Assembly: GCA_905178155.1 (NCBI GenBank)
Contig: CAJINV010000005.1
Span: 8,306,515-8,370,514, forward strand
Length of the DNA: 64,000 bases
Direction of reading: 5' to 3'
Source of the DNA: Amoebophrya sp. A120
Lineage: Eukaryota; Protista; Dinoflagellata
Position numbers and translations under genes: made by a program. Positions 1-61,100 of this stretch are shown here, in pieces; position 1 is the stretch's first letter; each line of letters begins with the position of its first letter. The notes beneath the pieces are model-generated. The model saw only the letters and a list, made by a program, of their open reading frames with translations, searched no databases and had not been told where the DNA came from.

Positions 1-3000
1 CGGATATGCATTGCAAAAGTTGTATCGTACTAGGTAGTACAAATTGCATATTTCTCAGCGTGAAAAATAAAAATTGAATTTGTCATGCTGTTTTACCTTG
101 GAAATGCGATTTGTAATGCATCACTGCAATTGCTACGAGTGCGATACTTTTGCACAGGATAACGGAGCTGGCGAGCTGATTTTCGCCAAGATTGCGGAGT
201 TACTGGCGCTACTGGAACGGTCGTGCTGCGGCGAGATCGAGTTTTTTTGCGCGATATCAACTGTAGAAATGTCTGGGTCTGGAAGAATGCAACTTGTCAT
301 GCTGATTTTGAATTCTAAAAAAATCTGTATTGCATGGGCAGCAAAGAGAGTCCAAGTTTTGCTACACGGAAAGAGCATTTGTCATGCGGTATAGCATCAG
401 GAAGCCTCACAAAATCTGTGATGCTAGGGCATGCATCACAGACATCAGAAGTCCTGCAAAATGTGCATGACAAACGTGGAAATCTTCCAGACCCAGACAT
501 TTTTACATTTGAAACGCGAAGAAAATTGAGACGGTCATGGTGAAGGACGAGAGCGGCGAGTTTGCGAAGTGGAAAAAGGAAAAGCAGCAGAAGCTCGACG
601 CCGATGGGAGAACGGCTCTGCGCGGGGGAGCTGCTGCGAGCAGCACGACCGCTGGTGCCAGTACAACATCGGACGAACCTCCTTTCCCCTACCCCTGGCC
701 GGTGGCATCGTTCTGTTCGGTGAAAGAGGAGTACGTGCGCAAATTCAGCCTGGCGCGGGAGTTCAAGGACCCAGGTACTGGCACGATATGACAGTGCGCA
801 ACTCCCCCTCCCCCTCATTTGTCATGCAAAAACCCAAATCCAGTTGCTCGTTGTGGCGCCGCGTGCATGACAAATTCCGGAAAGCCCGATAGTACTACAC
901 TCGGAGCATGAACCTGTCATGCACAGGACGCACCTGTACTGGTGTTTGTAATGCTGTTGATGCCACGCAAATGATAATGAGGAGGAGGTGGGGGGGTTGT
1001 GTACTCTCATACACGAACGCGTTGGATGTGAAGCAGTACGAGGTATTTGGAATATCAAATGCAAATATGTCTACTGGGTCTGGAAGTTTGGGATTTGTGA
1101 TGCTAACTCTCGATCCTACAAAAAACTGTATTGCATTACCAGCAAAAGGCGCTCAGATTTTTGCCACGACCCGGATCGGGCATTTCTCATGCAGGATAGG
1201 CATGATGAAGCCTTCGCGAGGGCTGCGATGCTAGAGAATGCACCACAGGCATCGTGGGTCATGTACTATATGCATGACAAACACCCAACTTTTCCAGACC
1301 CAGACATATTTGCAATGCATATGGAGACAAAAGCAACAATAGCAAACCTCCTTCACCGACCGCGTCGCTGTTCACCATGACACAGCGAAAAATGTACAAG
1401 AACTGCGGGCCGATCCCCAATCCCGAGGCAAGGCGGTCGAACTTGGAGGACTTGGTCGGCGACCGGCTGCAGTTTAACACCGGCCAAGCAGTGGAGGATG
1501 AAAAGTGGATCGAGGCGATTCGGGCTGTGTTACCAGTCATTGAATCGGCGGTGCGGGTGTACGATGAGGACTACTTTCACAACTTGCACCATCAGAACGC
1601 GCACGACTACAACCTGCGGGCCTCGAACCCGGAAAGTTCGTCGTCCGAGTGCAAAGTGAACATGAACGAGAAACTTCCGGTCGCAGAATGGCAAGTGGGG
1701 AACAGCTATCAAATGTAAAAGTGTCTGGGTCTGGAAGAATGCAACTTGTGATGCTGCATTTGGATTCCAAAAGAATCTGTATTGCATGAGTACCAAAGGG
1801 AATGTAATTCTTGCTACGCGAAGAGGGCATTTGTCATGCGGAATAGGCATCAAGAAGCTCTCAAAAAATCTGTGATGCTAGGGCATGCATCACAGACATC
1901 AGGGCTCATGCAAAACGTGCATGACAAGTGTCAGAATCTCCCAGACCCAGACATTTTTGCAATGCATAACAGCAACAGCGGGACGCGCGAGTCGAATCAA
2001 GTGCTGATGAACCCAGATCTACCTGCCTCCAAGGATCCCACGGAACCGCAGAACGCCAACCTGCGCGGGTATTTGGAAAACGAAAACCACCCTCTGTACG
2101 ACGGGTCTTTCACCTCCCGTGCACTGCAACCGATCCCAAACTTTTTGATGAAAATTATCCTGAGTAAAAAGAAAAACGTCCCCACCCCATAGTCAAGTTG
2201 GTAAATCTGCAACACAAATCTCCAAGGTTTGGGAGTTGTGCATGACAAGTTTCCATCTGCAGCGTAGTGCGGTGAGCAAGGGAAGCCGCATGAGAATGCC
2301 ACTTTCTCACCCTGGGTACAGCATTACAGATTCCAAAAAACGATTAGAAATGCCTCTCATGGAGATGCGCATTACAAATGTGTCTGTAATCGCAACTCTG
2401 CATGACAGCCATGGAGTGGGGACGTTTTTACTCAGGATACAAATCGAACAGGAGCTGGACGTCGTCATTGCCGACCTGGCGGCAATCACCGGGCTCTTCG
2501 GATTAGCGGTATCAAATGCAAATATGTCTGGGTCTGGAAGAATGCAAGACCTGTCATGCAGATTTTACATCACCCATGACGCCTGTAATGCATAACCTAG
2601 CATCACAGGAGATTTGTTAGAGGGCTTCCTGATGCCTATTCCGCATCAGAAATGCCCTCTCCATGTAGCACAAACTGGGCTCCTCTTGCTGGTCATGCAA
2701 TAAGTACAGATTCTTTTAGAATGTAGAGACAGCATCACAAGTTGCAACCTTCCAGACCCAGACATATTTGCATTCGATAAGCGGCCAGCAGGAACGAGTT
2801 GCTGCACTTCATTCCCACGACGAGAAAAGTGCTGCAGCACCTTGACGAATTGACGACCAGAATTGCCACCATTTTCGAGTACGAGTATTTGGTGCTGAAG
2901 AAAGACGTTTTGGAGCAATATGTGGAACTGTTTCAATACGCAGCCTACGAACGGGTCCGACTGGGAGCGGAGAAGGACAAGAAGCGAAATGCGGACGGCA

Positions 3001-22337: not shown

Positions 22338-25300
22338 ATGGGCGCCGCCGCAAGCTCCGCCCTGAAGGGGCCCGGAAAGGGAGGGAATAAAGACGGGGAT
22401 ACCAAATGCAAATATAATGTCTGGGTTTGGAAACTTGTGATGCAAGCCAGGGAATACTGGGCGCACTGTCATGCGTGGGCAAGCATGACAAGTTTTTGAG
22501 CTGCTATGTGTAGCGTATTCCGCATGGCAGACTGCGCTTCGCATCACAGACAAGACGATCTTATTACGCCTTCGCATGACCGGGTTCCGAGTCATGTCAG
22601 ACTAGCATGACAAATCTGGCAATCTTCCACACCCAGACATATTCGCATTTGATAGGGGAGAAAAACAAGCAACCATCGCAGCACCAGCAGTGGCGAAAGC
22701 CTAAAGATTATGCAATGCAAAATTTCGTACCAGTATAAATTACATATACAAATAATTAGCCCAGCATTACAAATTTGAATTTGTAATGCTGATTTACCTT
22801 GAGAAAGAGATTTGTAATGCATAAATGCAATTACTACGAGTACGATACTTTTGCACTGGATAAAGATTTGAAGGAAATCAAAAAGCAGAACGAGCAGCGC
22901 AGGAAAGAGCAAGAGGAGCTGGAGAAGCGACGAAAAGAGGCGGAAGAGAAGCTGAGAAAACAGAAGGGTAGCAAATGCAAATATGTTTGCGTCTGGAAAC
23001 TTGTGATGCTAAAACGTGGATGATGGAAACAGTTCCGCACGCATCCCAGCATGACAACTTTCTGGAACGCTTTCTCATAGGCATGAGAAAGTGCGTTTTT
23101 GTAGTATGTACAAAAGAGGCCCCGACTTCTTTTGTTGGTTATGCAATACAGACTTCCTAGGCATGGAAAGCTAGCATTACAAGTTCCAACCTTCCAGACC
23201 CAGACATTTTTGCATTTGATAAAGGAGCTGCTCGAACAGGAGCGAAAACGGTTGGAAACGTATCCTGAATAAAAACTTCCCCACCCCATAGTCAAAATGG
23301 GAAAGCAAATCTGCTAGACCAATCTACAACCTTAGGGTGTTGCGCATGACAAGTTTGGTCGCGTAGTGTAGTCCTTTTTAGCTCGTTCAGAAGCATCACA
23401 AAACTGCCCCACCGTGCTGATTGGAGCATTACAAATCCCAAAACAGCACGACGAGGAGTCGCTTCCCATCGAGCTCCGCATGAGAAACGTTTTGAGCATG
23501 CGTTTTTGCATGACAGCTTTGGGTTGGGGACGTTTTTACATGGGAGAAAACGGCCGAAGAGATCGACGGAGCAGAAGTCGTATGAACTGCAAAAGTATCG
23601 TACTCGTATTGCAATCATGCATTACAAATCTTTTTCTTGAGGTAAATCCGCATTACAAACCTTATTTCTCATGCTGAGGAAACTTGTAATGCATTCATAC
23701 GAGTACGTTACTTTTGCAATGCATAAGTCGGAGACTACGTCGCGGGGCAAACCACAGCGGGAAACACCGCGAGCAGCCCGGAATTGAGTCAAAACAACGA
23801 CATATCCTATGTAAAAACATCCCCACCCCAGAGTTGTCATGCAGATCTGCAATGACAAGAACATTTCTGATGCGCATCCCGATGATGGGCATTTCCAGTC
23901 GTGATTTGGAACTTGTAATGCTGTAAACGGGATAAGCGGATGGATTTGTAATGCGGCTCTCCACACTAACCTGCACTACAGTACGAACTGAAATTTGTCA
24001 TGCGTGACCACCAAAACTTCTAGGTTTGTGTTGCAAAGTCCCCATCTTGACTCTGTGGTGGGGACGTTTTTACTCAGGATACGACAACTACGGAGCAGGA
24101 GCAGCGGGGCAGAATGGCGAGCAGAACTACAATTTCAACCCTGATATCGAATGCAAATATGTCTGGTTCTGGAAGTAGGTTGCAACTTGTAATGCTGTGC
24201 TTGGATTCTAAAACAGTTATGTATTGCCTGACCAGCAAAAGGAGTGCCGTTCTTCCTACGCGGAGGGGGCATTTATTGTCATGCGCAATAGGCATGATCA
24301 GGGAGCCCTCTAATAATCTGTGATGCTAAGCCGTGTAGTTGTACAGGCATTCTGGGCCATGCACATATGCATGACAAAGAACCTGGCAATCTTCCAGACC
24401 CAGACACGTTTGCTGTTGATGCCTGATTACGTCTTCTTCGACGATCAAACGGGCAAATTATCACAAGAAAAAACTGTTTCACTGTAAACTTGTAATGCAG
24501 AAAATGCATCTGAGAAGTGTTTGTCTTGCTAGTCATGCAAGACAGTGGATTTTTAGCTGTGTTTTCCCTTAGGGATCTCGCATGGCAAATTTTCTCTGTG
24601 AAGATGTAGAGCAAACTTGTGATGCAGAACTTGCAAAATCCTTACAGTGAAACACTTTTTTCGTACGATACAAATACATCGCCTACGACTACGACGAGCA
24701 GGGTAATATCATCAACATGCAGGACGTCTTATCAAATGCAAATATGTCTGGGTCTGGAAGGTCGCCAGACTTGTCATGCAGGTTTTCCATGACGCATGAG
24801 GGCTGTGGCTGTCATATATGAGCTAGCATGACAGATTCTGCGCGACCTCTATCATGCCTCGCCTGCATGAGAAACTGCCTCTCAACTTGGTCAGAAGTGA
24901 GCAGCTTTTGGCAATCACGCAACACAGATTTTCGCACTATCCAGAATTAGCATGACAAGTTCCAGTGTTCCAGACCCAGACATATTTGCAATGCATACGT
25001 CTCGGTGCACTACGAAACGGCGGCCGAGAAAGCGCTGAAGAAAGCGGAACAGGTATCCCCAGTAAAAACAACATCCCCATCCCAGAGTTATGATGCAGAT
25101 TTGCAGTGACAGGAAGACTTGTAACTAATGCGCATCTCCACGAGAGGCATTCGCATTTCCAGTCGTGTTTTGAAATTTGTAATGCGGTAAACAGGATAAG
25201 ATAAGGAGATGGCTTTGTGATGCGAGTTTTCGTACTTGCTACAGTGCACTACAATACACAGAAGATTTTGTCATGCGCGAATTCCAAGGCATGTGGATTT

Positions 25301-28300
25301 GTGTTGCGAGATCCCCATCTCGACTCTGGGTTGGGGACGGTTTTTCACAGGATAGCAGGTCGGGATTTTCGACATTATGGAACACGAAGAGGTTATGCCA
25401 GGAAAAAAGCGTCACAGTTACACATTGTGTTGGAGAACGCGCAAGACAGACAACCTCTCTCATGCTGGAAAGGCATGCGAGCCTCGTTTATTCATACGTG
25501 TTTTCCCTTAGCATCTCTGCATTGCAAGTTTTCTCTGCAATGCAGAGCAAGTTTGTGTTGCTAAAGTTGCAACAAATGTGTAACTGTAACACTTTTTCCC
25601 TGTGATAGAGGTGGTCCCCTCGGAGTACGTGAAGAACCAGGAACGCATATCCTATATAAAGACATCCCCGCCCCAGAGTTGTCATGCAGATTTGCAAGCA
25701 CAAGAGCATTTGTAATGCGCATCCCCATGAGAGGCCTTTTCCACTGTGTTTTGGAACTTGTAATGATGTAAACAGGTTGAGGAGACGGATTTGCTATGCG
25801 GCTTCCCTTGCCAAGCTGCACAACAGTACAGCCTGCAACTTGTCATGCGTGACTCCCAAAAGTTCAAGGTGTGTGTTGCAGAACCCCCTTCTTGACTCTG
25901 GGGTGGGGATGTTTTTGCTTAGGATAACGCAAGGAAATCGAGGAGCGGCTGAAACAAGACGAGATGAAGAGGTTATCAAATGTAAAAATGTCTGGGTCTG
26001 GAAACTTGTGATGCTGAATTGCGCATGTTTGAAGCGCTTCCAATGGCAGCCAAGCATGACAAGTTTTTGAGAGGGCTGCTGATGCCTAGCACGCATTACA
26101 AATTGCGTTTTCGCATGACAAAGAAAGCCTCTGTTTTGCTGCTCATGCAACACAGATTTTCCAGGAATGCATGACACGCATTACAAGTTTCAACTTTCCA
26201 GACCCAGACATTTTTGCACTTGATAGAGGTCCAAGCAGAACGAAATCCTGCAATTGCGGCAAAGGGTATGATAGTGCACAACTGCCCCTCCCCCTCATTT
26301 GTATGGCATGAACAGCATCACAACCACCAACATTCATGGAGCCTGTGCATGACAAGTTCACGCGCCGAGTGTAGTACTGTTTCGGCTTGTTCCGGAATTT
26401 GTAATGCAAATAGTGCCATAAGGCACCAACTGGATATGTGGTTTTGCATTACAAATGAGGGGATGTTGTGCACCGTTATAAAGGGAAGTGAAAACGGGGT
26501 CGATTTTTGGGAATCCGAAAAGAAATTCGGACGTGCTGAACGCAAGTCAGCTGGGGAGCAGTCAAAAATTATGCGATGCAAAACAAGTATCCTACTCGTA
26601 TAAATGCATTACAAATTTCCTCAGCGTGAGAAAATCTGTAATGCGGATTTACCTTTAGAAAAAAATTTGTAATGCATGACTGCAATTACTACGAGTTGTG
26701 CGATACTTTTGCACAGGATAGAAATCCATTGGGACCAACAACAGCCTCCGGTCGAGCCAATTGTCGCTCAACAACACCCAGGATAAGCAGGTTTTACAGC
26801 TGCAGGACGAGTTGGTCTCCAAGCACGAGAAGCTGAAACTACCGGAAAACATGTCCTTAGAAAACACTCTGATTGACGCCGCGAACAAAATCTGGGAGCA
26901 AATTATCCGGGAAAACAAGTCCCGCCGAGTATTACAATGAACAATGCCCCCACCCCCGAACTTGGGAGAATTTGTATTGCAAACCTTTCCAAAAGAAACA
27001 TTCGCCCTCTTGCATCTATCAGCATCACAGATTTCCAATCGTGAATAGCAAAAACTTGTATTGCAAAAGATCCCAGCAAAAGCGGCGCTTGTCATGCAAG
27101 CGATGCGATTCACGCCTAGACCCTGTATCAGAAAGATTCATACTCCTTTCATGCATGACAAAAAGTTTTCTTTTGGAAAATTCGCATCACAAATTTTTGC
27201 AACTGTGGGAGTGGGGGCATTTTTAACTGTAATACCGAGCGGAGTTGAACGCGAGCGGCGGGTTAGGACCCCCGGGCAGCACGTTGACGTATCAAAAGAA
27301 AAAATTCCCCCTCCCCATATCGAAAGCGACATCTGTGACGCTGTATTTGAGTACACAAATCGACTTGTATTGCTAGAAGGCCAAGAGCCGCAGTTGTGGC
27401 CTCGTTTGCAGGCAATTTGTCGTGCTATGTCGCACTTCCAGCTGCCTCCTGTCGTGCTGAAGATGCAAGGCCTTCCCACGCCGCCCAGCACTACAGGCCG
27501 CATCTTTTGTTCCCTTCTAGCATGACACAGCTGATTTGTGACCACAAATCTGCATCACAGATTTCCGCTTTGATATGGGGAGGGGGGATTTTTCTTCTCG
27601 ATATGACGCAGCCGCAGAACAACACGACCAATGCGACGTCGCAGAGAACCAGCACGCGACCCTCGCAAAACAATAACAACTCTCCGGCCAAGGCAAATTT
27701 CGGCAACGACCTGAATAACCCGAACGACCCCACCATTCTGCTCACGCTGAAGAAACAGGTGGAAGAGGCGGCGCTATTGAGAGGAAAAAATCCCCCCTCC
27801 CCATATTGAAAAGGTATGTTTCCGAAAATTTGTGTTGCTGATTTGTGGCCACAATAAATCAGGTTTGTCGTGCAAGAAGACAAGTGCAAAGGCTTCCCTC
27901 CCATTCTGGAAGCGATTTGGCATGCTGTTTGGCCTAGAGGGCAGCCGTTTGCGATGCTAAGCAACTAGATCCAGGCGCACCTATCCAGGCGAAGGATCTG
28001 GCCGCAATGCCTTACAGCAAGACAGAGCGCATTTGCGTACGCAAATTCAGCACGAGAAACTTCGTTTTGATATGGGGAGGGGTGATTTTTCTCCTCGATA
28101 GGCGCACTCTCTGGAGGCGTACGAGAACGACCTGGAGACCTACGCGCAGCAGAAGTATGCGCTCATACACGAACTGGACCAGCTGGTCTTGAAGATCGAG
28201 CCCAACGCGATTTTGGGGTATAACGAGCAATTGGAAACCGCCTACGAATATCCAGTGCAAATATGTCTGCATCTGGAAACTTGTGATGCACAAAAGGAAT

Positions 28301-31300
28301 AAATAGTGAGCACACTCTGATGCGCTGCCAAGCATGACAAGTTTTTTCGTGGTTCTGAGTTGCGTACTCCGCATGAGAAACTGCGTTTTTGCATGACAGG
28401 CAAGAGGAGCCCTTCGCGGCCGCGCAATACAAAGTTCAGAGTCATTCTAGACTAGCATGACAAATCTCGCAATCACCGCCCAGACCCAGACATATTTGCA
28501 GTTGATAACGAATTTGTCGAGGGCGAGTTCGCCATTCGGAAGGGGAAACTGTGCACCATATCGCAAGAAAAAATTGTTTCACTGTAAACTTGTGATGCAT
28601 AGAATGGAGCACAGAAGTGTTTGTCTTGCTACACATGCATAGGGCATTGGAGTTTCAACCGTGTTTTATTCCCTTAATTTTCTTTGTCATGTACAACAAA
28701 TAACCTGTGATGCAAAACAACTTGCAAAAAAATCCTTACAGTGAAGCACTTTTTTCTTGCGATACACCATTCACAAGATCCACCACCAGGAGCTGCCATA
28801 TGGGGTTCTCAAACGTTACATTCTCAACCGTTGCATGATTTGTCATGCAAACTGACCATGAGGCGCCGGACGATGAAGCCGCTTCGCATGAGAAATTCTC
28901 GGAGGGCCAAATAGCACTAGAATCCGCACCAAATCTGTAATGCAAGATGCGCAAGGTTCTCCCTCTCGCCTGTGCTATTCTTGCATTACCAATGCATGTA
29001 ACAGTTGAGAATGTAACAGTTGAGAACGCCATATGCCACCCTACTACGAAGTGAAACCCTACTACCACAACGAAAACTTGACAAACAATTTCACCATGAA
29101 TCAAAACATCATCGGGACCGAGGCGACCAAGCTGAAGGCATTGGGACCGGTGCTATTGAGAGGAAAAATCCCCCCTCCCCATATCAAAACGAAATTTCTG
29201 ATGCTGGATTTGTGTACACAAATCCGAGCTGTCTTGCTGTAGAGCACTGCAGGCGCATACTAAGTGTGAGTAGAGAGGTTTTGGCCTAGGCACTTAGCAT
29301 GAAAAATGTCAGCACTGTAGGCCCAACAGCATGACAAACCGCCTGCACAATGCGGCGGAGCCTGCGGAGTTGCTTTCTTGCAAGACAGACGCGATTTGTG
29401 GCCGCAAATCAGCATCACAAATTTCCAAAAGTATACCTTTTCAGTATGGGGAGGGGGGATTTTTCCTTTTGATAGGTGCAGGCCGGGCAGGTCCGGGCGA
29501 AGATGCGAAGCATTGTATTACAATAAAAAGTGCCTCCATGGCCCCGGGAGTCAGTCGCAACAGTTTCTGAGATGCAAAGTTTCCAAACGGAAACTTTCTG
29601 TCTTGCATGAAATAAGCACTCTGAGTCTTTCTGGCACAGAATCTAGGCTCGCGAGGCACCTTTTGCATGACAGGCCCGGCTGTTGTTGGGCTCTTTAGCA
29701 ACACAAATTTTAAGCTGTTCAGCATCGAAAATTGGCGATGCTGAGACATGCAACACGGGGAATGTTTCTATTGCGAAAGGTTGCAAAAATACGTATGCTC
29801 CCATGCTTCTGGGGTGGGGGCGTTTCTCATTGTAATACATTGATGTGATTGAGTCCAAAGTCGTCGTCGCGGACGAAGGCAAGCGAAACGCGGAACAGGA
29901 CTTGGTCATGAACCACAAGAAGCTAGAGGAGTTGTTTCAAGCCATGAAGCTTGGGAAGGACATATCCAAGAGAAAAACGTTGTTAGTGTAAATTTGTGAT
30001 GCGCAACATGCAGGATTGCGTCTGTCATGCTTGGCATGCATCGTAGGGTCCATTAGCGGGCATTTTCACGTACTATCTGCGCATGACAGGTTTTTGCTGT
30101 CATGCCAGACAAATTTGTAATGCTGTTCCTCCTAAAAAGTTACACCTACAATGTTTTTTTCTTGGATAGGACAATCCGCCCGCGAATCCCGGACCCCCGG
30201 TCACCTTGCCCATCCCAATGCTGCCGACCCAGCCACAGCAGCCCGTGGATTTGAACATGACGATATCCAATAAGAAAAGATTGTAGCTGTAACTTTCTTG
30301 GAGGAATAGCATCACAAATCTGTCTGCGAGCAGAAACCTGTCATGCGCAGACTGTACGTGAAAACGCGCTTGGAAGTAGAGCCTAACGATGCATGCCCAG
30401 CATGACAGCCGCAATCACTTTGCATGTTGCGCATCACAGAGTTACACTAACAATGTTTTCTTCTTCGATAGACAAGAACGCGGGGCATAGCCGCGCAGAA
30501 CATTCCGCGCCCGGTTAGTAGCCGGCCGAAGTGGAAGCCGGGGATGGGGCCGGTGAACATGTATCAAAATGAAAAATCCCCCTTCCCATATCAACGTGGG
30601 AATTTGTGATGCTGATTTGTGGTCACGAATCACCTTTGTCTTGCCTACACGGAAATGGGAACTATGTGGCGCATTCCACAGTCAGTCTGTCATGCGCTTT
30701 CGACTGCTGCAAACCTATTTGCCATGCCTAACGGCTAGCCTTCTGCATACCCAAGAAACAGGCCCAGAAAATGACCCCAACCACTTTCTGCAAGGCAGAC
30801 CTGATTCGTGTATGCAAATCCAGCATCAGAAACCTCGTTTTTTTATATCGGGAGGGGGGATTTTTCCTTGTGATAACATGCCCAGCATTGAAGTCGTGAA
30901 AAAGTGGGCACAGCCGGGTATGCAGGACTACAGTCCGCCACATAATCAGATGGAAAGCGACAACGTCAATTTGAACCAGAACTATAGTCAGAACAACTAT
31001 GGAGGTCCTGGCGCAGGACAGCATTACAACTCTGCGAACCCGACTACCCAATACCAGTACCAGCAGGTGCAGGGCGGCGCGGGCATCTACACGAGTCCGG
31101 TCACGCGAAATTCCAGTGCGTCCAATAGCAAGGAAAAAGAGAAGGAACGGGAGCAGCTTATTGTGTGTAAAAACGTCCCCACCCCATAGACAAGATGAGA
31201 AATCTGCTAGACAAATCAGCCAGCTTTGGCTGTTGGGCATGACAAGTTTGGCTTCGTAGTGTAATCCTGTTGAGCTTGTTCAGCAGCGTCCCAGGTCTTG

Positions 31301-34300
31301 CCTATTATGCTGATTGGAGGGAGCATTTTACAAATTCCAAAACACGGCTTCGAGCAAATGCTTCTCATGGTGCTCCGCATGAGAAACCTTTTTAGCGTGC
31401 AGATTTGCATGACAGCTATCGGGTGGAGATGTTTTCACACAGGATACAGCTCATTTTTCAGCACGGGGAGAAGATGCGACAAGAAGAGTACATGCGCCAA
31501 GAGGAATATCCGAGAAAAAAACTATGTGAGTGTAAGTCTGTGATGCAGAAAATGCAAAACTGTTTACACTTGTCATGCTGCTCTTCCGTACAAAGTTACA
31601 CTTACACAGTTTTTTTGCTGGATACAGAACAGAGAAGCAGCCGAAAAAATTCGAAGTCGCAAAACAGCGTACCGACCACCGGGGGTTTCGGGCTGCCGTC
31701 CATGGAAAAAATGCAGGCGGATAGGGCGAAGTATTTTAATTTGTTTTTTTCAAAGACTGTAAGAAGTACTTTACCAATTATGGCCTCACTGCTGGCAAAA
31801 GATGTTGTTCTTGGCTTGTTCATCTTGCAGTGAAAATAGTAGTTGTCGTCCGGCGGAAGATGTTCTTCCAGTGGGTTTTTTTTGTGAATATAGAGTACGT
31901 TTTATGTTGGTCAAAAATTTTGAAACAGGATGGACCAGCAGCAGCAGCAGCAGCAGACCCAGCAAGCTCAACAGCAGCAACAGGCCGCCCAGCAGCAGCA
32001 GCAAGCCGGGAAGACAAAATGGATTCCCTACTCCACCTATGCATTGCAAATATGTCTGGATCTGGAAAGATGCAACTTGTCATGCTCAATCTGGATCGTG
32101 CCAAAAATTTGTGTTGTATGATCAGAAAGAGATGTCCACTTTTAAACAAGTTCAGATGGAGTTTCTCATGCAGGATAGGCATGACAGAGACCGTACAGAG
32201 TCTGTCATGCTAGGCCCCGCATTCCAGACCTCATGGGTCATGGAAAACCTGCATGACAAGTTTACACTCTTCCAGACCCCGACATATTTGCATTTGATGC
32301 CACCGAAGACGGCAACGTCTTCTACTACAGCGAACAAACGGGCGAATCGGTGTGGGAACTGCCCGCAAACGCAGAAGTCGACTACAGTAACTGCGAAAAC
32401 GACACTAATGTCGAGCAGCAACGGCAGAAAGAGGAGGACGAGTACTACCAACAGTACGGGTACGCAAACCGGCAAGCCTACGAAGACGCTTGGTACAAGG
32501 CGGAGGCAGAGAAACAGGCGAAAGAGCAACAGAAAATAAAGGAACAAAAGCAGGACCCTATCCTGAGTAAAAACGTCCCCACACCAGAGGCAAGATGGGG
32601 ATTTTGCAACACAAGCCTAGAAGCTTTGGGAGTCACGCATGACAAATTGCACTCCGTAGTGCAGTGCAGGATAGCAAGTGCAGCCGCATCACAGATTCAT
32701 CTGCTTATCCTGTTCATAGCATCACAAATTCCAAAACACGATTGGAAATGTTTACCATAGGTATGCGCATCACAAATGTCCTTGCCATTGCAAATCTGCA
32801 TGACAACTCTTGGGTGGGGACGTTTTTCCTCAGGATAGACCCGTTTTACCACTTGCGACAGCACGAGCAGCATATCCTGTGCAAAAGCATCTTCGCACTT
32901 ACTCGTGATGATTGCAGGCATGCATGCATGACAAATTTCCTTTCCAAGGTGAAACAGCACGACAAATTCAATTTTTCATGCTGAGAACATTTGTAATGCA
33001 ATTTATACTAGATAGTGCGATGCTTTTGCAATTCATACAGCAACAGGCACAACAGCAAGCCGAGTGGGCGGAGTGGTACTGCTGTAAATGAGGTTTTATT
33101 TTGGTAAATGCATGGATCGTGTGTGCGCTATGCATGACAGGCAGCTGTTGCGTTGCGCTGCCTCGCATGACAAAGGCAAGTTTCTTCGAAAATATAATCT
33201 ACAGGTACAAGCAATATCAAGCGTGGTACGCCGGGAGTGTGGGTGGACAACAGCACCAACTTATGGGAATGAAATATATACTTCCTGTCATGAGGATGAG
33301 CTTTTGTTTAAATAGCATTTTATGCATGACAAAACCGCTCTGCAGTCATGCAGACTAGGACAGCAAATGACAAGTTTAGTATTTCATCCCCATATTGCAC
33401 AACCAGCAGCAAAACAATCCGTATGGAAATAACAGCAGCCAGCCCTTCGTTGGCAACCCCTACCAAAACCAGCAAAATACCAATGCGGGCTACGGAGCAC
33501 AACAGCAACGGGGACCACACCACAATGCAAACTCCCCCGGTATGGCGTTCTCAAGCGTTACATTCTCAACTGTTACATGAATTTGTAATGCAAGGCTAGC
33601 ACAGGCGAGAGAGAGAACCTTGCGCGTCTTGCATTACAGGTTTGGTGCGGATTACAGTGCTATTTAGCCATCCGGGAATTTGTCATGCGAAGCAGCTCGA
33701 TCGTCTGGCGGGTCATGGTCATTTTGCATGACAAATCGTGTAACAGTTGAGGATGTAACGTTTGAGAACCCCATACCCGGCGGGCCACAGCATCAGCAGA
33801 ACCAGCGACCTCCCACTGGGGGAACCCCGAATTTGCCGCCCGGGGTGCGCTATCAAATGCAAAAGTGTCTGGGTCTGGAAGAATGCGCGATTTACATTAA
33901 CATTGCTTGACTTCCGGGTTCTGGTACGGCATACCCCCAGCGAGAGGTGAACTCGACAGGTGACCTCGACAGGTGACCTTGACAGGTGACCTTGACCGGT
34001 GACCTAGACAGGTGACTTGGACAGGTGACCTGTACAGGTGGCCGCGACAGGTGACGACGACAGGCGAGGCGAGAGGATAAATCACAGGCGAGGCCAGCGC
34101 CTACGCTCGTGTCGTATGTTATTGACGTGAAAAGCAAACATTTGCGACACAGAAAATGAAAAAGAGAAAAGCGCAAAAAAAAAAACTGCGACGCAGAACA
34201 TGAAAAAGATAAGAGCGCAAAAACACAAACTGCCCCCACACACACACAAAGAAGTCTCTGCGTCGCGGTGCAAAAATATTAAAAAAGTGCTTTCTCTTTG

Positions 34301-36658
34301 CAATGCACGCCCAGGGGGAGACGGCTGCTTACTTCGCCTCCGGAATCGGGAATGAGTTGCAGCCGGGCAGAGATAAGTATGTCCTCTGCTTCTATTTCTG
34401 TTTTGTCTTGCAAAATTAATGCAGGGCACCTAATTCATCCTTTTGCCAATAGCGCTTAGCGCACTAAGCCACTATGCGCGCGCCTGGTGAGAGGCGAGGG
34501 GCGGACGCTGTCCGCACCGATGCCGAGCACCCTTCCCCCACTAGCGCTTCGCGCACTAAGCCACTATGCGCGCGCCTGGTGTGAGGCGAGGGGCGGACGC
34601 TGTCCGGCCCGATGCCGAACACCCTTCCCCCACTAGCGTTTCGCGCACTAAGCCACTATGCGCGCGCCTGGTGTGAGGCGAGGGGCGGACGCTGTCCGCC
34701 CCGATGGCGAACACCCTTCCCCCACTAGCGTTTCGCGCACTAAGCCACTATGCGCGCGCCTGGTGTGAGGCGAGGGGCGGACGCTGTCCGCCCCGATGGC
34801 GAACACCCTTCCCCCGCTAGCGTTTCGCGCACTAAGCCACTATGCGCGCGCCTGGTGTGAGGCGAGGGGCGGACGCTGTCCGCCCCGATGGCGAACACCC
34901 TGCCCCCACTAGCGCCACTAGGGACGGGGACAAGGCCCCAGCGTGGGGACCCTGTCCCCACGCGTGGGTCTTGTTTGTCATGCAGCTTTTCCATGACCCA
35001 TGACATGAGGTCTGGAATGCAGGACCTAGCATGACAGATTCTGTGCGATCTCTCTCATGCCTATCCTGCATGAGAAACTCCCTCCCGACTTAGTCAAAAC
35101 TGGACGACTTTTGGTAATCTATCACGCAACACAGATTTTTGCACGTTTTCAGATCTAGCATGACAAGTTGCATTCTTCCAGACCCAGACATTTTTACATT
35201 TGATATGCGCGACCCTAAGTTGAAGCCCATTTTGGACCCACAGTTTGAGGACCGAGCGGTATGGCAAGGAAAAATCCTCCCTCCTCATATTGAAGACGCA
35301 CCTTCTGAAAATTTGTGATGCGGATTTGTGACCACAAATCCTGTCTGTCTTGCGAGAAGGCAAAGCCAGGCTCTCTGACACGCTATGCAGGCGATTTGTA
35401 ATGCTGTAAGGACTGCAGGGCAGCCGTCTACCATGCTAGGCGCCTACACCAAAGAGCCTCTATCTAGGTTGGCGATCAGCGTGCAGTCCTCTACTGCAAC
35501 ACAAATCTGATTTGTGTACGCAAATCCAGCATCACGGATTTCCTTTTCGATATGGGAAGGGAGAGCTTTTCCTTTTGATAAGCGGTTTATCTGATGAAAG
35601 CGGGGATCTTGAAGGAGATGGAACTCATGGTCCAGAATAAAACCTCGATAGAGGATCGGAAGAAGGCGTTGCGAATATGCAACGAAAAAAGTGTTTACAG
35701 TGATACATCCTGTTGCGGAACAAGCAAGACAGACAACCTTTGTCATGCTAGAAATGCTTGCGGCTCTCCGATTTCGTACGTGTTTATTTCCCTTATGATC
35801 GCTGCATTGCATATTTTCTCTGTCATGTTGAACAAACTTGTGTTGCTGAAATTACAACAAAAAGTGTGTTGTAAAACACTTTTTTCTTAGGATAGCAGAA
35901 ACTGAAATTTCAGTGGCACCCGGACAAAAATCCCGAAGACCCGGAGGTGGCTATCAACATGAAAAATCCCCCCTCCCCATACTCAAAGGGAGATTTGTTT
36001 AGCATCATTTGCGATCACAAATCACGTTGCCATGCCAGAATGGAAGATATGCGGATTGTAGGGGTGGCTGGCGTAGGAAAGCATTGCGTCTTCAGCATGA
36101 CAGGAAGCAACTGGAAGTGGGCAACAGCATGACAAATCGCCTGCAAACGAGGCCGCAACTGCCTCTCTTGGCCTTCTAGGAAAACAAGTCGACTTGTGTA
36201 CTCAAACACAGCAACACAAATTTCGTTTGCGATATGGGGAGGGGGGATTTTTTCTCACAATAGTGGCCAAGTCGGTGTTTCAGTTCGTGGAGGAATGCAA
36301 AATTTGGTTTTTGCTCGACGAAGAGGAATATGCATTGCAGATATCGATCTGGGTCTGGAAGAGCCCGAACTTGTGATGCTAGCTCTCGAGCAGACAAAAA
36401 TCTGTATTGCGTGAATGCCAAACGCTGTCCACTTTTGGCTACACAAATAGCGGACTTTTCATGCGCAGCACGCATTAAGAATAAGAACAAGAAGCCTCCG
36501 CAAATAATAAACCTGTAATGCTTTGCGTGCATTCCTGGCCATCCATGTGTTCCAGAAGATGCATGACATTCTAGTGCACTCTTCCAGACCCAGACATATT
36601 TGCATTTGATAAAGGGGGCGAAGGGGGGACGAGTGTCGGGGGCAAGAGTCCGATTTGA
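22338..36658 (+). CDS. Gene 3, WW-domain plus C-terminal J-domain (DnaJ-like) protein with possible N-myristoylation; 38 TIR introns and 2 GT-AG introns
   Basis: Starts MGAAASS. Elements at 22400-22654, 22709-22862, 22969-23221, 23261-23547, 23581-23725, 23803-24081, 24145-24421, 24459-24670, 24730-24997, 25054-25354, 25394-25607, 25648-25926, 25974-26225, 26267-26480, 26570-26720, 26930-27234, 27290-27603, 27775-28100, 28249-28507, 28559-28764, 28799-29033, 29154-29474, 29516-29837, 29963-30168, 30264-30470, 30562-30875, 31159-31446, 31507-31624, 32038-32299, 32559-32837, 32873-33037, 33262-33394, 33541-33775, 33851-35205, 35260-35580, 35676-35894, 35952-36262, 36329-36611. Inferred GT-AG introns at 31731-31928 and 33076-33204. 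Splicing rebuilds KWIPYSTEDGNVFYYSEQTGESVWELP (WW) and RKKALRKLKFQWHPDKNPEDPEVAKSVFQFVEE (J domain). Could be two genes split near 31833/31930. Confidence 0.85.
24459..24670. mobile_element. Introner family I (3 copies, about 210 bp), representative copy
   Basis: TIR TATCNCAAGAAAAAACTGTTTCACTGT; TSD CAAAT. Others at 28559 and 61604. Confidence 0.9.
25394..25607. mobile_element. Introner family J (3 copies, about 210-220 bp), representative copy
   Basis: TIR TATNNCAGGAAAAAAGYGTYACAGTTACACA; TSD GAGGT. Others at 35676 and 61895. Confidence 0.88.
28799..29033. mobile_element. Introner family K (2 copies, 235 bp, opposite orientations)
   Basis: TIR TATGGSGTTCTCAARCGTTACATTCTCAAC; TSD TGCCA. Second copy 33541-33775, TSD CCCGG. 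Confidence 0.92.
31507..31624. mobile_element. Singleton short introner (118 bp)
   Basis: TATCCGAGAAAAAAACTATGTGAGTGTAA ... TTACACTTACACAGTTTTTTTGCTGGATA. TSD diverged (AGGAA/CAGAA); frame restored. Confidence 0.8.
33262..33394. mobile_element. Singleton short introner (133 bp)
   Basis: TIR TATGGGAATGAAATA / TATTTCATCCCCATA. TSD not recognisable, but removing the element plus 5 nt restores the frame. Confidence 0.78.
33944..34066. repeat. 13-bp tandem repeat (GACAGGTGACCTN)n, about 9 degenerate units
   Basis: Directly visible. Confidence 0.9.
34459..34914. repeat. 92-bp tandem repeat x5
   Basis: GCACTAAGCCAC recurs at 34461, 34553, 34645, 34737, 34829. Units contain the hairpin GGGGCGGAC-GCT-GTCCGCCCC. 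Confidence 0.95.
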
Positions 36659-37027: not shown

Positions 37028-38390
37028 TAGTCTACTACCACAGTTGCAGTTTCTATTTAAAATACCTTACCTGTTGTTCCTGTTGTACTCAGAAGTCGTC
37101 GAGAGCGCGAGGTTTGACTTGATACTCCTGTATGATGCTCATCATCTTCTCTACTTCTGTACAAAAAGCGCCGGACGGGGAAAAGAACGCACGACCCTTT
37201 TCACTAACAAATTGTTGGTGTAAGAATGAACGTTAAGAGGCTGCACCAAGAGAGCCGAAAATGGAATATTCGTTCCGAACAAGACCCGGCCAAATTTGAA
37301 GGCACGCGGCGGGGGGAGAGGAGACAGAGGAACTGTTCCACCCTCGTCGCACTGGTGCCGCTAAGTAGCAAACACATTCGGATGATTTGTAGTATCCTCT
37401 TTCTGCTTGATGTTTGTAGTATCTTCACTTCACCTCGGATGTCTTTTGCTTGATGTGTAGTCTTCGCGCTCCGACTCCGGCGGAAGGCGGTATCTACGTG
37501 TAAATATAGAAGGCGGCTTTAACCACTTGCTGACGAAGGTAATAACTACATCCTCGGTAGAAGTTCTACAGATTATACTATTTCGTCCGCAACAAGAAGG
37601 ATCGGTTAGGTTTGTTTCGTGCGCAACTGCGCTTCGATCGGTTTGATTCGTACCTACATTAGAATCTTCTCGGTGGACGATGGGCTACGTGCTTATTTTT
37701 CTGTTCACGCATTCGCGTGTAGAAGATGTCGTTCATCATGCTTGGCAAAGATTGAGATCATGGTGAAAAAAATACGCTTCAGTCGTGGACCCTTTTTTCC
37801 ACTTCTTCCCCCTTGTTCCCCGCGAAAAAGAATTCTAGTCGTCTTTAATGTGTTTCTGAAGTTTTGACAAAATTTGTTTTCCTTATTTTCATTTAAGTTC
37901 ATTTTCATCTTCCATTCGAGACCCAGACATATTTTTATTTGCACTTGATAGCGAAGCAGAGGCAGTAGCGGAGCAAGACGATGGCGACGAAAACGGCCGC
38001 CGCGCTCCTGTGCGCGTACCTGGTTTTGTTCGACGGCCCTATTGGTTTCCTGTTCGTGTCCGCGGTGGCGCGCCACTTTCTCGAGCCGACGCGGGAGCGG
38101 GGAAGCACAACCTCTGACGAAAATACGGCCGCGGGAAATGAGAGGATTCTAACGGCGGTGACCATCGGCGCAGATAGCGAGACGGAACCTGCTCCGGCGC
38201 AGTCTACTACTTTTGTCGACCACGAAGAGGCGACGCCCGCGGCGAAGGGCGAAATCGATGCAGCTGTGGACACGACTGCAAGCAGCGCAGCGAGCGAAAC
38301 GGCGCCACCCGGCGAGGTCGTGGTTGCGCGAGAAACTGCGCCTGCAGCCGGGGACGGCGCGACGGGCACTCTGTTTCTTGAACGAGAAGC
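37028..38390 (+). repeat. Segmental duplication, copy 1 (upstream region plus N-terminus of gene 4)
   Basis: Aligns by eye with 45998-46920 plus 49951-50440, e.g. shared GTTGGTGTAAGAATGAACGTTAAGAGGCTGCA. Confidence 0.9.
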
Positions 38391-45284: not shown

Positions 45285-45997
45285 TTGTCATGCGAACTTC
45301 TTTTTTTCGTAGGCGTACTATCTAGTTTGTTTTCATGGCTGCACTTTGATTTTTTCTTTCTGTTTTTGAGTAAGTGTAAGTGACTGCTTTTTTCGATTAA
45401 GTACCTGAGGTTGCTCGGCTTTCACTTTGACATGATAATCTTGAGTTTTTTTGAACATAGTTCCTTCTGACGTAATTTTTTCACCACGATCGATTCGCTA
45501 TTAGCTTTTCTCTTTTGTTTTTGTCGATGTATGTCATCCTACTTTCTCCAAGCGTTTCGGTTTGACTTTCAAGACTCCCAACTTACTCATAAGCCTACTT
45601 TCATTCGTGCTTCCCCTTTCCAAGTAAGTACTGCGCGAGACACTGTTCTTCACTTCCACAGCATGTAGCAAATCGATAAAATAAAAAATCCACAAACATG
45701 ATCAAGAGAGCACGAATAAAAGCAGAAGAAACCGCTCTTCCCTCTCAAGCTCTACGGCATTCCTTCTTTTTTTCGCACACTTTCGAAAACAGAAACTCAA
45801 AAAAGAATAGAGCTTTTCTAAATTTTTCAAACATTTTTTTCGCTAACAACCAACATTCATATCAGTTTTAATACGTTTTTTGCAGATGCAAACGCCGCCC
45901 TATTCATTTTGTCACTGCAAGGTGGAAGCAGCTTCGTGTCACAGCCCCCGTCGCAGTTCGCAGGTGAAAAATCTATCACCGAAGCGCCACGATAAGC

Positions 45998-58121: not shown

Positions 58122-61100
58122 ATGGCCACCTCCCGTACCCGCCCCCCCTCCGATCGGGAATTGGACCAGACTTTCGCCAAACTTGCTGACCAAATCCGGG
58201 CCCAACTTGAGGTGTTCGTGGACCCTAGCAAAACGAGTGCTGGGGGTAAGTCCGTCGTTTTCGGGAAGATCGGAGGGAGCAGGAATCAGACAGCTGGAAG
58301 GACTTTCTCATCGAGGAGCGCACTATCAAATGCAAATATGTCTGGGTCTGGGAGTGGGAGACTGCTAATTTGTCGTGCTTGTCTCGCATGATTCTCAAAT
58401 CTGTGATGCAGGAGGAACAGAGGAAAACCACTTTGCCTGTCATGCAAAAGCGCAGTGTGCCATGCGGAATGCGCAACACATAGTGGCTGCAAAACTTGTC
58501 ATGCTCGGCTGCGTACTGCAGTGCGCCCATCACTGGCGGACTTGCATTACAAGTTTCCAGGCCCAGACATATTTGCAAGGCATACGCACACGTCCAACAC
58601 CATTTCCCCAAGCCCCAGCTGTACCGCTGCTCGAACACCGACCGCAACCAGCATCACAGACTGTCGAAATATGGAAGTGCACAGCTGTAGTAAGTACCTC
58701 TCGTGGTCCCCAGGTCTCATTTGTAAGTTTGTAGTTTTGTGATGCAAAAATACCAGAATCCCAGACCAGTCGTGTCTTCTCGACGTATGCCACTGTTAAT
58801 GAAGAACTCAACGGACACAGCACTACAACGATCCGAGCAGGAACCAAGATTTCTCTCTATGAACGTTGCAGAAGCCGCTTGGTTCTTTCTTCTCGCTGTA
58901 GCAGCCTTTGCTTTATCGATGCCCTTTATTTTTCGATACGGGAAATTTATTTTTGGCGGGAGGTGGTGTGCACTCTCATACGAAAGCGTTGAACGCTTGG
59001 CTCGACAAATTTTACCACGATGTGTTCTCTGAAGACGAACGGGCAATCTGGGCCTACTATCAAGTGCAAAACTGTCTGGGTCTGGAAACTTGTGATGCAA
59101 AAAGTGAATGGTAGACGGACTGCAATACGCAGCTATTCATGACAAATTTTTTGGCTCCCATGTCTTACGTATTCCGCACGACAAACTGCGTTTCTGCATG
59201 ACAGGTAAGAGGGCCTTTTCGTGCCTGTGCAACACAGATTCTCGAGTCATGCTAGACACGCATGACAAACTTGCACTCTTCCAGACCCAGACATTTTTAC
59301 ACTTGATACCTACACCGAAGAATTCAATCTTCCATCTTCCACTACCGCATCACAACTGTACCGCGCAAAAGAAGCAACGGTGGAGGCGAACAGGAATAGT
59401 GTGAAATCGCTCCGGAACGCCCATGCGGCGGCGCTGTTGCTGGGGTTGATCGATGTGGACGTGCCGTTGCTGGACCGCTTCAATTATGAACTGCAAAAGT
59501 ATCGTACTCGTATAAATGCATTACAAATTTCCTCAGCATGACAAATAAAGTTTGTAATGCGGATTTCCCTTAAGAAAAAAATTTGTATGCAAGGCGTTGG
59601 GTTACCCGGTCGGCAGAGCCGATCCACAACGAGCGAATGACTGCAATACGAGTGCGATGCTTTTGCACACGATATCAAAAAGCCGCCCCACCTCGGGCCG
59701 TTGCGACCGTTGCCGAGCGGGTTTGTGCTGCGAGTGCGACATCTGAAACTGCAAGCCAGGACCAATGCGCTGTCGGGGTTTGAGTTCGGGGGAACCTGTG
59801 GTACAACTACGGGGGCGATGTTTGCGCCGCAGACAAGAAGTGGTAGTTGTACAACTTCTAGGGGAATGAACAACTTCTACAATAAAGCGATCGTTTGTGG
59901 CAGACATCAAAATCTCCTGCCAGATAACTTTCTCCTCTTCGACAACAAAAATTCCTCCAGCAGCACACGAGTCCACTACCTGGAGCACTTATTGCACGAA
60001 ACTCGGGACAAATTTTCTAAAACCGCGGACGAGCGGCGTAAGCTGATGCGGAAAATTGAAGTTTTGCAGGAAGACAACCGGCGGCTGCGGACGAAAATGG
60101 TCACGAAGGTGAATTCAGCGGCGAGTCTGGAGTATGAAATGCAAATATGTCTGGGTTTGGAAGATTAAAACTTGTCATGCTAAATCTGAATGATGCAAAA
60201 ATCTGTGTTGCGTGACTACCAAAAGCTGTCCCCTTTTGACCAAATTGAGTTGGAGTTTCTCATGCAGGAAAGGCATGATAAAGACCTAAAAGAATCTGTC
60301 ATGCTAGTTCTCGCATTTCGATTTCAGACCTCATGGCTCATGCAAAACGTGCATGACAAGTCGCAGCATACTCCAGACCCAGACATTTTTGCATTTGATA
60401 TGGAGAATACTACAACTGCCGTGGTCGCGAATGCGAAGCAGGAAACGCAATTTCATTTGAACCGTGTTGAGGCTCATTCTGGAAACAAGGAAAACTTGGA
60501 AACCACCTTTGACGAGGTTTTGTCGCATCTGGAACCGAACTGGAACCACGCGAATGATAACAATAACACCAGAGCAGGACCACTTTCCTCTGTCCGTCGG
60601 AACTCCACCCGGGTGCTTGAATATGACGATCCAGGAACAAGAACAATCTACGGCAAAAACATGGGCAACACCTATCCTGTGCAAAAGTATCGTACTCGTA
60701 GTAATCGCAGGCATGCATTACAAATTTTTTTCCTAAGGTCAATCAGCATTACAAATTCCATTTCTCATGCGGAGAAAATTTGTAATGCAATTCATACTAG
60801 AACTAGTGCGATACTTTTGCAATGCATAACACAAGCACAGCAACGAAGCCGAATTTTTCCGCTTTGTCGCACGACCATCACAAGTTTTCTGTGGAACAAG
60901 GTGACGAACAAATACAGTTGCAAACGCTGACGGATTTCAGTACTGGGGAGATCATACGGAAGAACAACGCCAACTCACAGCAACTCCTGCGAGATGAAAA
61001 TTGTTCTCGCGATGAACAGACCTCCGCAATGTTGACCGCTCATGATTTCCAGCTCCAGTCTCGTTTCGCGGAGAACGAACGGATTTTGGAAACGGAAGCA

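Follow-up and report, generated by a model that had tools for sequence, protein, structure and literature searches.

A 12-nucleotide word repeated inside dissimilar introner elements of Amoebophrya sp. A120 as a candidate protein-binding site for element mobilization

What is the short word that recurs inside the introner elements of the dinoflagellate Amoebophrya sp. A120, and what might read it? The question touches two matters that, going by the text of PMC7789003, are open in print for these elements, namely, how they move without a transposase and how they are removed exactly without normal splice signals or U1. We analyzed 64,000 nucleotides of A120 DNA (contig CAJINV010000005.1, forward-strand positions 8,306,515 to 8,370,514; here called the window), in which an initial annotation had drawn attention to an octamer repeated within several element families. 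We found that the octamer is the core of a word of about 12 nt, AAYYTGTVATGC, which occurs about six times per introner element. We tentatively propose that the AAYYTGTVATGC array is a set of predicted protein-binding sites, read on double-stranded DNA, that would serve element mobilization.

We searched the window for perfect 5-bp duplications adjoining inverted ends, taking non-overlapping pairs, and found 56 such pairs, compared with 2 to 5 in shuffled sequence; 50 of the 56 start with TAT. The carriers of the word are cut-and-paste-type miniature inverted-repeat transposable elements (MITEs) with a 5-bp target duplication and inverted repeats of about 31 nt that begin with TAT. We annotated 65 elements of 118 to 337 bp, which fall into 11 named families (A, 25 members; B, 8; C, 7; D and G, 4 each; E and J, 3 each; E2, F, H, and I, 2 each), with 3 left unassigned. 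The families have in common the TAT tip (mostly TATC or TATG), an A-run about 10 nt in, the inverted repeat of about 31 nt, and the 5-bp duplication. In families A, B, C, D, E, G, and H, the tips read TAT, seven bases, and then AAA(A). Because tip, repeat length, and duplication are common to the families, they very likely use one kind of mobilizing enzyme. We found no internal similarity linking different families. The initial annotation had called the families otherwise unrelated, and this is true of their interiors, where the word is the only shared item, but not of their ends, which have tip, A-run, inverted repeat, and duplication in common.

The word is far more abundant than expected. 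We found 298 exact matches to GCATNACA or its complement TGTNATGC on the two strands of the window, whereas 100 dinucleotide-preserving shuffles gave a mean of 10.0 (standard deviation, 3.4; maximum, 19). One form, GCATGACA/TGTCATGC, is the most frequent 8-mer in the window (143 copies), above every inverted-repeat word. Elements defined by inverted repeat and target duplication hold 206 matches in 17,171 bp (12.0/kb), and other repeats hold 76 in 8,790 bp (8.7/kb), so that all repeats together (26 kb) account for 282 of the 298. The remaining 38,039 bp contain 16 matches (0.42/kb), which bears out the earlier impression that the word is rare outside the elements. At least 4 of these 16 (at 45286 and 33132-33324) lie inside truncated or decayed elements, and two more (9876 and 10117) probably do as well, for a total of 6 of 16. 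When the 31-nt ends were left out, the element interiors still contained 195 copies in 12,061 bp, against 1.5 (maximum, 5) in mononucleotide shuffles.

The word is also present in nearly every carrier. At least one exact copy was found in 62 of the 65 annotated elements, and each of the other three has six one-mismatch copies where 0.6 to 0.95 were expected. The average element carries 3.1 exact and 3.1 one-mismatch copies, and none of the 65 elements annotated in the window is free of motif-like sites. We then ranked gapped words of the form XXXXNXXX by their sharing among families. GCATNACA came first, being present in at least half the members of all 11 named families, as the initial annotation had proposed for every family that it saw. 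Every other top-ranked shared gapped word was part or flank of GCATNACA, which alone among internal words is shared by every family.

A metagenome scan with a two-site motif pattern returned at least 134 loci. At least 57 metagenome loci carry the window's families at 72 to 97% identity, and all are contigs of one assembly (JACKZZ01...). Among the matches listed, we found 82 elements in JACKZZ01, 46 of which lack the search pattern; these 46 contain 117 word copies in 10,858 bp, and 44 of them have at least one. Five motif-dense loci among the matches listed (L083, L095, L096, L119, and L127) were rejected as unrelated tandem repeats that contain TGTCATGC by chance. We also noticed a short family that is absent from the window (L022, 2395-2557; L066, 938-1105; L075, 1178-1348), with elements of 163 to 171 bp and tips TATCCCAGAGAAAAA..GGCAGGGCATATTTG. 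Its three elements contain 0, 0, and 2 exact copies of the motif, which makes it the poorest carrier among the matches listed.

Seven bases of the octamer are fixed and one is free. The middle base N of GCATNACA is G in 143 matches, C in 89, T in 62, and A in 4 (n = 298), so that G makes up only 48%. Conserved flanks widen the site to the 12-nt AAYYTGTVATGC, and the extended logo is equal in family A (98 sites) and in the other families pooled (104 sites). One-mismatch variants are likewise found mainly in the elements: TGTNTTGC occurs 79 times inside and 11 times outside, TCTNATGC 46 times inside and 2 outside, and TGCNATGC 39 times inside and 10 outside. The near-absence of A at N (T in the other sense) is due to the general scarcity of TpA inside elements. 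TpA trinucleotides are depleted about 2.5-fold in the element interiors of the whole window (TAT, 112 versus 263 expected; TAA, 93 versus 260). We considered whether avoidance of T at N serves to rule out spurious TAT tips, and dropped this idea because the depletion inside elements is as strong for TAA and TTA as it is for TAT and ATA.

From nine family alignments we computed pairwise identity for each column and averaged it by column class. The mean was 0.88 for the seven fixed motif bases (231 columns), 0.62 for the N columns (33), 0.69 for other internal columns (1,352), and 0.84 for the 31-nt inverted-repeat ends (558 columns). Motif columns were more conserved than other internal columns (Mann-Whitney, P = 1.5e-17). 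In family A, motif columns reached 0.83 and the interior 0.56, and single sites matched in 20 to 23 of the 25 copies. The word thus does persist in very diverged copies, as had been suggested.

Both the placement and the spacing of the copies follow rules. Of 130 element ends, 73 have their first exact copy no more than 50 nt from the tip, mostly at 33 to 46 nt, in the sense that reads TGTNATGC inward. At 13 ends, including all of those of family D, the copy there has the opposite sense. Adjacent same-sense copies are 31 to 33 bp apart in 31 of 88 pairs, in 9 of 12 families, and in 28 of 65 elements. When positions were shuffled, this spacing was seen on average in 3.3 pairs (maximum, 10) and in 2.3 families (maximum, 6). 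The spacers of these pairs differ between families and, by eye, look unrelated. A distance of 31 to 33 bp is about three turns of B-DNA, which would place the sites on one face of the helix. We concluded that the word is a common cis code and not a product of chance, as the initial annotation had argued, given the conserved seven bases, the free N, the absence of any other shared internal word, and this spacing.

The sense of the copies bears on how they could be read. We found 156 word matches on the + strand and 142 on the − strand, with no strand bias relative to transcription, and family A is inserted 12 times in one orientation and 13 times in the other. Elements of family B carry four or five copies, all of one sense and without exact partners. 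Where outermost left and right copies could be compared (24 elements), N was complementary in 5, formed G.U in 3, and was mismatched in 16, against a chance complementarity of 0.375. Because N in the outer pair is so rarely complementary, the fixed bases are not kept for pairing. In contrast, close inverted pairs (45 bp apart or less) had an identical N, and so formed a perfect palindrome, in 19 of 26 cases versus 0.36 by chance, and local hairpins are therefore also present. Covariation between paired partners fails for the outer pairs and holds in part for the close pairs. On the evidence of the outer-pair N and of the one-sense copies in family B, each site acts alone and not as the partner of a duplex.

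Of the readers that the initial annotation had offered, a protein on DNA, either a transposase or a chromatin protein, appears from these sequence features to fit best. We tentatively favor a transposase, or a partner of one, that would move all of these families. One protein would hold the tip and the internal sites jointly and so assemble both ends. Spread would be limited to source elements that keep the array, and such a limit would account for a word that stays alive across families diverged beyond recognition. There are precedents in the parts of the literature that we drew on. The hAT transposase Hermes, through its BED domains (PMC10368747), and the pogo-type Lemi1 acting on the Emigrant MITE (PMC1636448) bind not just the inverted repeat but also short subterminal repeats, and Ds families have only terminal and subterminal repeats in common with Ac (PMC3260210). 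Subterminal-repeat arrangements are known in hAT, CACTA, pogo, and Tc1-type elements and in some MITEs (parts of PMC10368747 and PMC1636448). As described in those sources, the subterminal repeats of Hermes and other hAT elements, Lemi1, and Ac/Ds resemble the array in being short words in both senses that lie inside the ends beyond the inverted repeat, in an arrangement that differs between the two ends, and in being, with the ends, nearly all that non-autonomous families share. They differ in that the word here is longer (seven fixed bases plus flanks versus 4 to 6), forms an array over the whole element with a spacing of 31 to 33 bp, and recurs in many families with different inverted-repeat cores. 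We could match the combination of a 5-bp duplication and a TAT tip to no transposon superfamily that we can name.

If the sites serve mobilization, they would decay roughly neutrally once inserted. We counted terminal-branch changes per cell by parsimony on the family trees; the window samples 64 kb from a genome with tens of thousands of copies, so that terminal branches mix pre- and post-insertion history. The fixed motif bases changed in 79 of 1,518 cells (0.052) and the inverted repeat in 186 of 2,910 (0.064), compared with 29 of 217 (0.134) for N and 814 of 7,072 (0.115) for other internal columns (motif versus other columns, odds ratio 0.42, P = 6e-15). A target duplication is perfect at insertion and therefore provides an independent clock. 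In 50 elements with good inverted repeats (at least 19/24), 38 duplications were perfect, 8 had one mismatch, and 4 had two, which gives 16 mismatches in 250 site pairs, or about 0.032 per site. A looser element set gave about 0.04, and 86 elements of other contigs, among the matches listed, gave about 0.03. The rate of motif and inverted repeat is thus about that of the clock or slightly higher. This is suggestive, though not decisive, of near-neutral decay of the motif after insertion, and the higher rate of other columns is best read as diversity among source elements. The initial annotation had counted neutral decay in old copies against its proposal of a code, and the observed values, 0.052 for the motif and about 0.03 to 0.04 from the target duplications, come close to it.

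Several points weigh against a role in mobilization. Constraint in place could explain why motif and inverted repeat change on terminal branches at only about half the rate of other columns, and the duplication clock may run slow, as the target duplications lie partly in coding sequence. We found no transposase domain with Pfam in eight large open reading frames (ORFs) of the window or in seven ORFs of a 4.2-kb stretch bounded by family B sequence (see below); the only Pfam matches in the eight large ORFs were a RING finger and, below threshold, a KilA-N domain. Nor is a transposase reported for A120 in the text of Farhat et al. (PMC7789003). The sites run throughout the element, beyond its subterminal parts, and those of family D face the opposite way. 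For element-specific sites, it would be unusual to find a single word in families whose inverted-repeat cores differ, and a host factor could explain this as well. Finally, that the window is transcribed on the + strand throughout, on which the comparison of strands depends, rests on ORFs and one RNA contig.

The elements are removed from RNA. We used RNA contigs from three runs of one sample, labelled "RNA?", and found contigs that lack elements exactly to the base, with the element and one copy of the duplication gone. Fifteen joints are listed, with 24 more found; each corresponds to an element plus one duplication, with 4 to 8 ambiguous bases, and they come from families A, B, D, E, E2, and J. 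A GT..AG reading is impossible for 12 of the 15 listed joints, and the other 3 can be shifted to GT..AG. In-silico removal of the elements with one duplication each opens long frames on the + strand, among them one of 541 residues that spans 13 junctions (26722-31830) and a second of 546 residues with 5 junctions. By these ORFs and one RNA contig, the genes in the window read on the + strand. The same contig that carries the 541-residue frame lacks family B copies of both orientations; further family B copies with TGTNATGC on + that are absent from it lie at 25053-25354 and 25648-25926. Because both orientations of family B are removed from one transcript, a sense-specific RNA reader is not required. 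The contig pieces around the family C element end at 27769 and restart at 28101. Within 22394-26722, one transcript spans at least 15 consecutive elements, with exons of only about 27 to 86 nt and with element sequence making up more than 85%.

The copy in which the octamer had first been noticed, at 290-475, is the interior of a 260-bp family A element at 255-514 (Table 1). All six octamers recorded there are present, five of them exactly; the one at 326-333 has one mismatch, and its column matches TGT..TGC in 20 of the 25 family A copies.

Table 1. Features of the family A element at 255..514 and of selected elements of other families (window coordinates)
Feature	Position	Strand	Details
Target-site duplication CGCGA, left copy	250..254	.	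Perfect 5-bp duplication beside the inverted repeats
Family A introner MITE, 260 bp	255..514	.	Set by inverted repeats and duplication
Left terminal inverted repeat, 31 nt	255..285	+	TAT tip, 7 variable bases, A-run, GTCTGGGTCTGGAAG
Motif copy TGTCATGC	295..302	-	Leftmost site; 41 nt from tip
TGTATTGC	326..333	-	One-mismatch variant of class TGTNTTGC; no exact match
Motif copy TGTCATGC	380..387	-	Column is TCTCATGC in many family A copies
Motif copy TGTGATGC	417..424	-	Left half of close inverted pair
Motif copy GCATCACA	433..440	+	Right half of close inverted pair; start-to-start 16 bp
Motif copy GCATGACA	465..472	+	Rightmost site; 42 nt to right tip
Right terminal inverted repeat, 31 nt	484..514	-	Tip decayed to TTT
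Target-site duplication CGCGA, right copy	515..519	.	
Family B element	52752..53031		Duplication CTGCG; inverted repeat 20/20; four exact copies, all TGTNATGC on +
Family B element, opposite orientation	23259..23545		Four copies, all GCATNACA on +; absent from RNA contig, joint 23255 to 23548
Family B element	23803..24081		Four copies, all TGTNATGC on +; absent from same RNA contig, joint 23796 to 24081
Family E2 element	25394..25607		No exact, six one-mismatch copies; absent from RNA contig, joint 25387 to 25607
Family C element	27775..28100		No exact, six one-mismatch copies; gone from RNA contig with one duplication
Family D element, 154 bp	22709..22862		Outermost copies reversed (GCATNACA inward); RNA joint 22701 to 22861

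This exact removal suggests a different role for the sites, as a recognition code by which a host factor, on RNA or on co-transcriptional DNA, marks the elements for exact excision from transcripts. We think this unlikely. Elements of families A, B, C, D, E, E2, and J are gone from RNA contigs to the base with one duplication, 12 of the 15 listed joints are not readable as GT..AG, and the text of Farhat et al. (PMC7789003) describes mostly non-canonical introns and no U1 small nuclear RNA (snRNA), so that another signal is needed. Motif-like sites in every annotated element, and a terminal-branch rate for motif and inverted repeat about half that of other columns, point the same way. The RNA of family B, on the other hand, has only GCAUNACA or only UGUNAUGC according to orientation, and both kinds are removed, which excludes a sense-specific RNA reader as a requirement. 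The balance of 156 to 142 matches between strands and the agreement of the decay rate with the target-duplication clock also speak against such a code, and a spacing of 31 to 33 bp has no obvious meaning on single-stranded RNA. Mismatches between the inverted-repeat arms, read on the + strand, show no preference for G.U (81, versus 74 A.C; P = 0.63; 1,814 of 2,123 positions are Watson-Crick), and there is no sign of RNA-level selection on the hairpin that favors wobble. The earlier suggestion that the word is the true intron-definition signal therefore survives only in a sense-blind form, with a factor on DNA during transcription or on duplex RNA. We assign this form a minor probability, and keep it because no motif-free element exists in the window to serve as a control. 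Somewhat more doubtful is the view that the AAYYTGTVATGC array is the code that identifies the parasite's thousands of transposon-derived, signal-less introns and replaces U1-type splice-site recognition; there, a site-specific factor, perhaps a tamed transposase, would direct exact removal of the element and one duplication.

Three further explanations were considered. One is that the sites bind a transcription or chromatin factor of the host, which would silence, mark, or package the elements and have no part in movement or excision. The traits that we observed (the free middle base, the spacing of about three helical turns, and the independence of sense) fit DNA binding, and a word in all families fits one factor, an example of which, following a lead from other alveolates, would be an AP2-type protein. 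We nevertheless hold this improbable, as it leaves unexplained both why the first copy has a set position directly inside each inverted repeat and the need of source elements to keep the sites for spread. It is more improbable still that the word has no reader and is conserved only as part of the stems of long hairpins, in RNA or as a DNA cruciform. As RNA, the element at 255-514 folds into a single long hairpin (−109.8 kcal/mol; z, −8.97); in this minimum-energy fold the outer motif pair (294-302 with 465-473) lengthens the terminal stem, and the inner pair folds back as a local hairpin. The folds of the two elements studied, one each of families A and B, are far more stable than those of shuffles (z, −8.97 and −11.95), a stability that is due to the inverted repeats, and the close inverted pairs are palindromic in 19 of 26 cases. 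Any complementary sequence would do for a stem, yet all 11 families carry the same seven bases, and the motif is kept although the sequence between the terminal inverted repeat (TIR) and the motif differs between the arms. The low complementarity of N in the outer pairs (5 of 24), the four to five one-sense family B copies without exact partners, and the lack of a G.U over A.C bias in the arms also contradict this explanation. Least probable of all, to the point that we give it little credence, is that the word is a relic of one ancestor with a short internal repeat and persists by inertia. Common descent is itself likely from the shared tip, inverted-repeat length, and duplication length, but the rest of the interior has diverged beyond detection while the seven bases stand at 0.88 and N at background, and the spacing is kept where the spacers have been replaced.

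We also compared the word with known RNA signals. The RBFOX-type splicing enhancer has the consensus (U)GCAUG, and GCATG does occur within the commonest form, GCATGACA. In our matches, however, the last base of GCAUG falls on the free position (G in 143 of 298), the conserved part reaches ACA, and the word is equal on both strands and works in either orientation. The initial annotation had noted the overlap with RBFOX. With N being G in only 48% of matches, no strand bias, and both orientations of family B removed, that reading fails. The PUF/Pumilio element has the consensus UGUANAUA; in its other sense our word also starts with UGU and has one free middle base, but here it is the fourth base that is free instead of A, the end is AUGC instead of AUA, and there is no dependence on sense. 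The branch-point consensus is yUnAy. U-N-A-C lies within GCAUNACA, and most families have such a copy 33 to 46 nt from the 3′ border, a typical branch distance. In family D, however, the copy at this place is reversed; half of the family B insertions are removed despite lacking any copy in that sense; and a branch point would need far fewer than six copies per element. A branch-point signal in the form of one transcript-sense copy 18 to 40 nt before the 3′ border in every intron was accordingly rejected, with family D and half of family B lacking it.

We made several further observations in the window. Between positions 7781 and 11948, a stretch of 4,168 bp is bounded by family B inverted repeats (19/20) and a perfect duplication, GGGGT. 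Its left 250 bp are nearly a whole B element and its last 50 bp are a B end; in the 3.9 kb between these parts, motif copies are sparse, and seven ORFs yielded no Pfam domain. The stretch may be a long relative, or else a B element into which a large insertion has gone. At 33851-35205, a family A inverted-repeat pair (18/20; duplication TGCGC) surrounds 1,355 bp that include a 13-bp array (33941-34064) and, at 34446-34915, 5.1 tandem copies of a 92-bp unit. The tips of family D, which we compared at 22709-22862, 23581-23725, and 60673-60828 in the window and at loci L009, L017, L037, and L078, differ systematically at positions 4 to 8, being TATGCAYTGC at one end and TATCCTGTGC at the other; the two ends are thus not equivalent, and pairing of the outermost bases is not required. 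A GC-rich coding repeat that is present three times (38046-38383, 50129-50442, and 52116-52438) is probably a small gene family. The KilA-N match lies in the ORF at 50049-51251 (E = 7e-4; 19.8 bits, with a cutoff of 23.8), and the RING finger, of the C3HC4 type (Pfam PF13920; 27.1 bits, with a cutoff of 27), is at the end of a low-complexity ORF at 55518-56801. An Rfam scan of the window found no family at gathering score. Across 20 kb of the window, two 2026 RNA-seq runs with the same species label yielded just 4 and 0 matching reads and may come from a different strain or consist mostly of host reads.

The elements that carry the word match those already described as introner elements of A120. 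According to the text of Farhat et al. (2021; PMC7789003), these have an inverted repeat that opens with TAT and continues with seven bases of lower conservation and then three or more A, direct repeats of 3 to 5 nt, introns of about 240 nt, a hairpin, non-canonical borders, exact removal from RNA, and very many families, and U1 was not found. Gozashti et al. (2025), in the parts of PMC12130899 that we used, give 58 introner families for A120, classed "TIR DNA, Unknown." The elements in the window agree with this description in TAT plus 7 plus A-run, the border direct repeats, the length, the hairpin, the non-canonical borders, exact removal from RNA, and the large number of families. They differ in that the direct repeat here is a clean 5-bp duplication just outside the TAT tip and in the internal shared word, which is not mentioned in the text or supplement text of PMC7789003. 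More broadly, we found no description of the word in the introner and Amoebophrya literature as covered by the texts of PMC7789003 and parts of PMC12130899, figures and logos aside.

A conserved 12-nt word that is present about six times per element is a handle on both the movement and the removal of these introns. It can be used as a probe to pull down its factor, either as double-stranded DNA or as RNA of either sense, and to find autonomous relatives as well as decayed copies beyond the reach of similarity searches. Should the reader of the word act in excision, it would represent a new way of defining introns. If the reader is the transposase, as we tentatively favor, it would be the missing mobilizer of one of the largest known introner populations.

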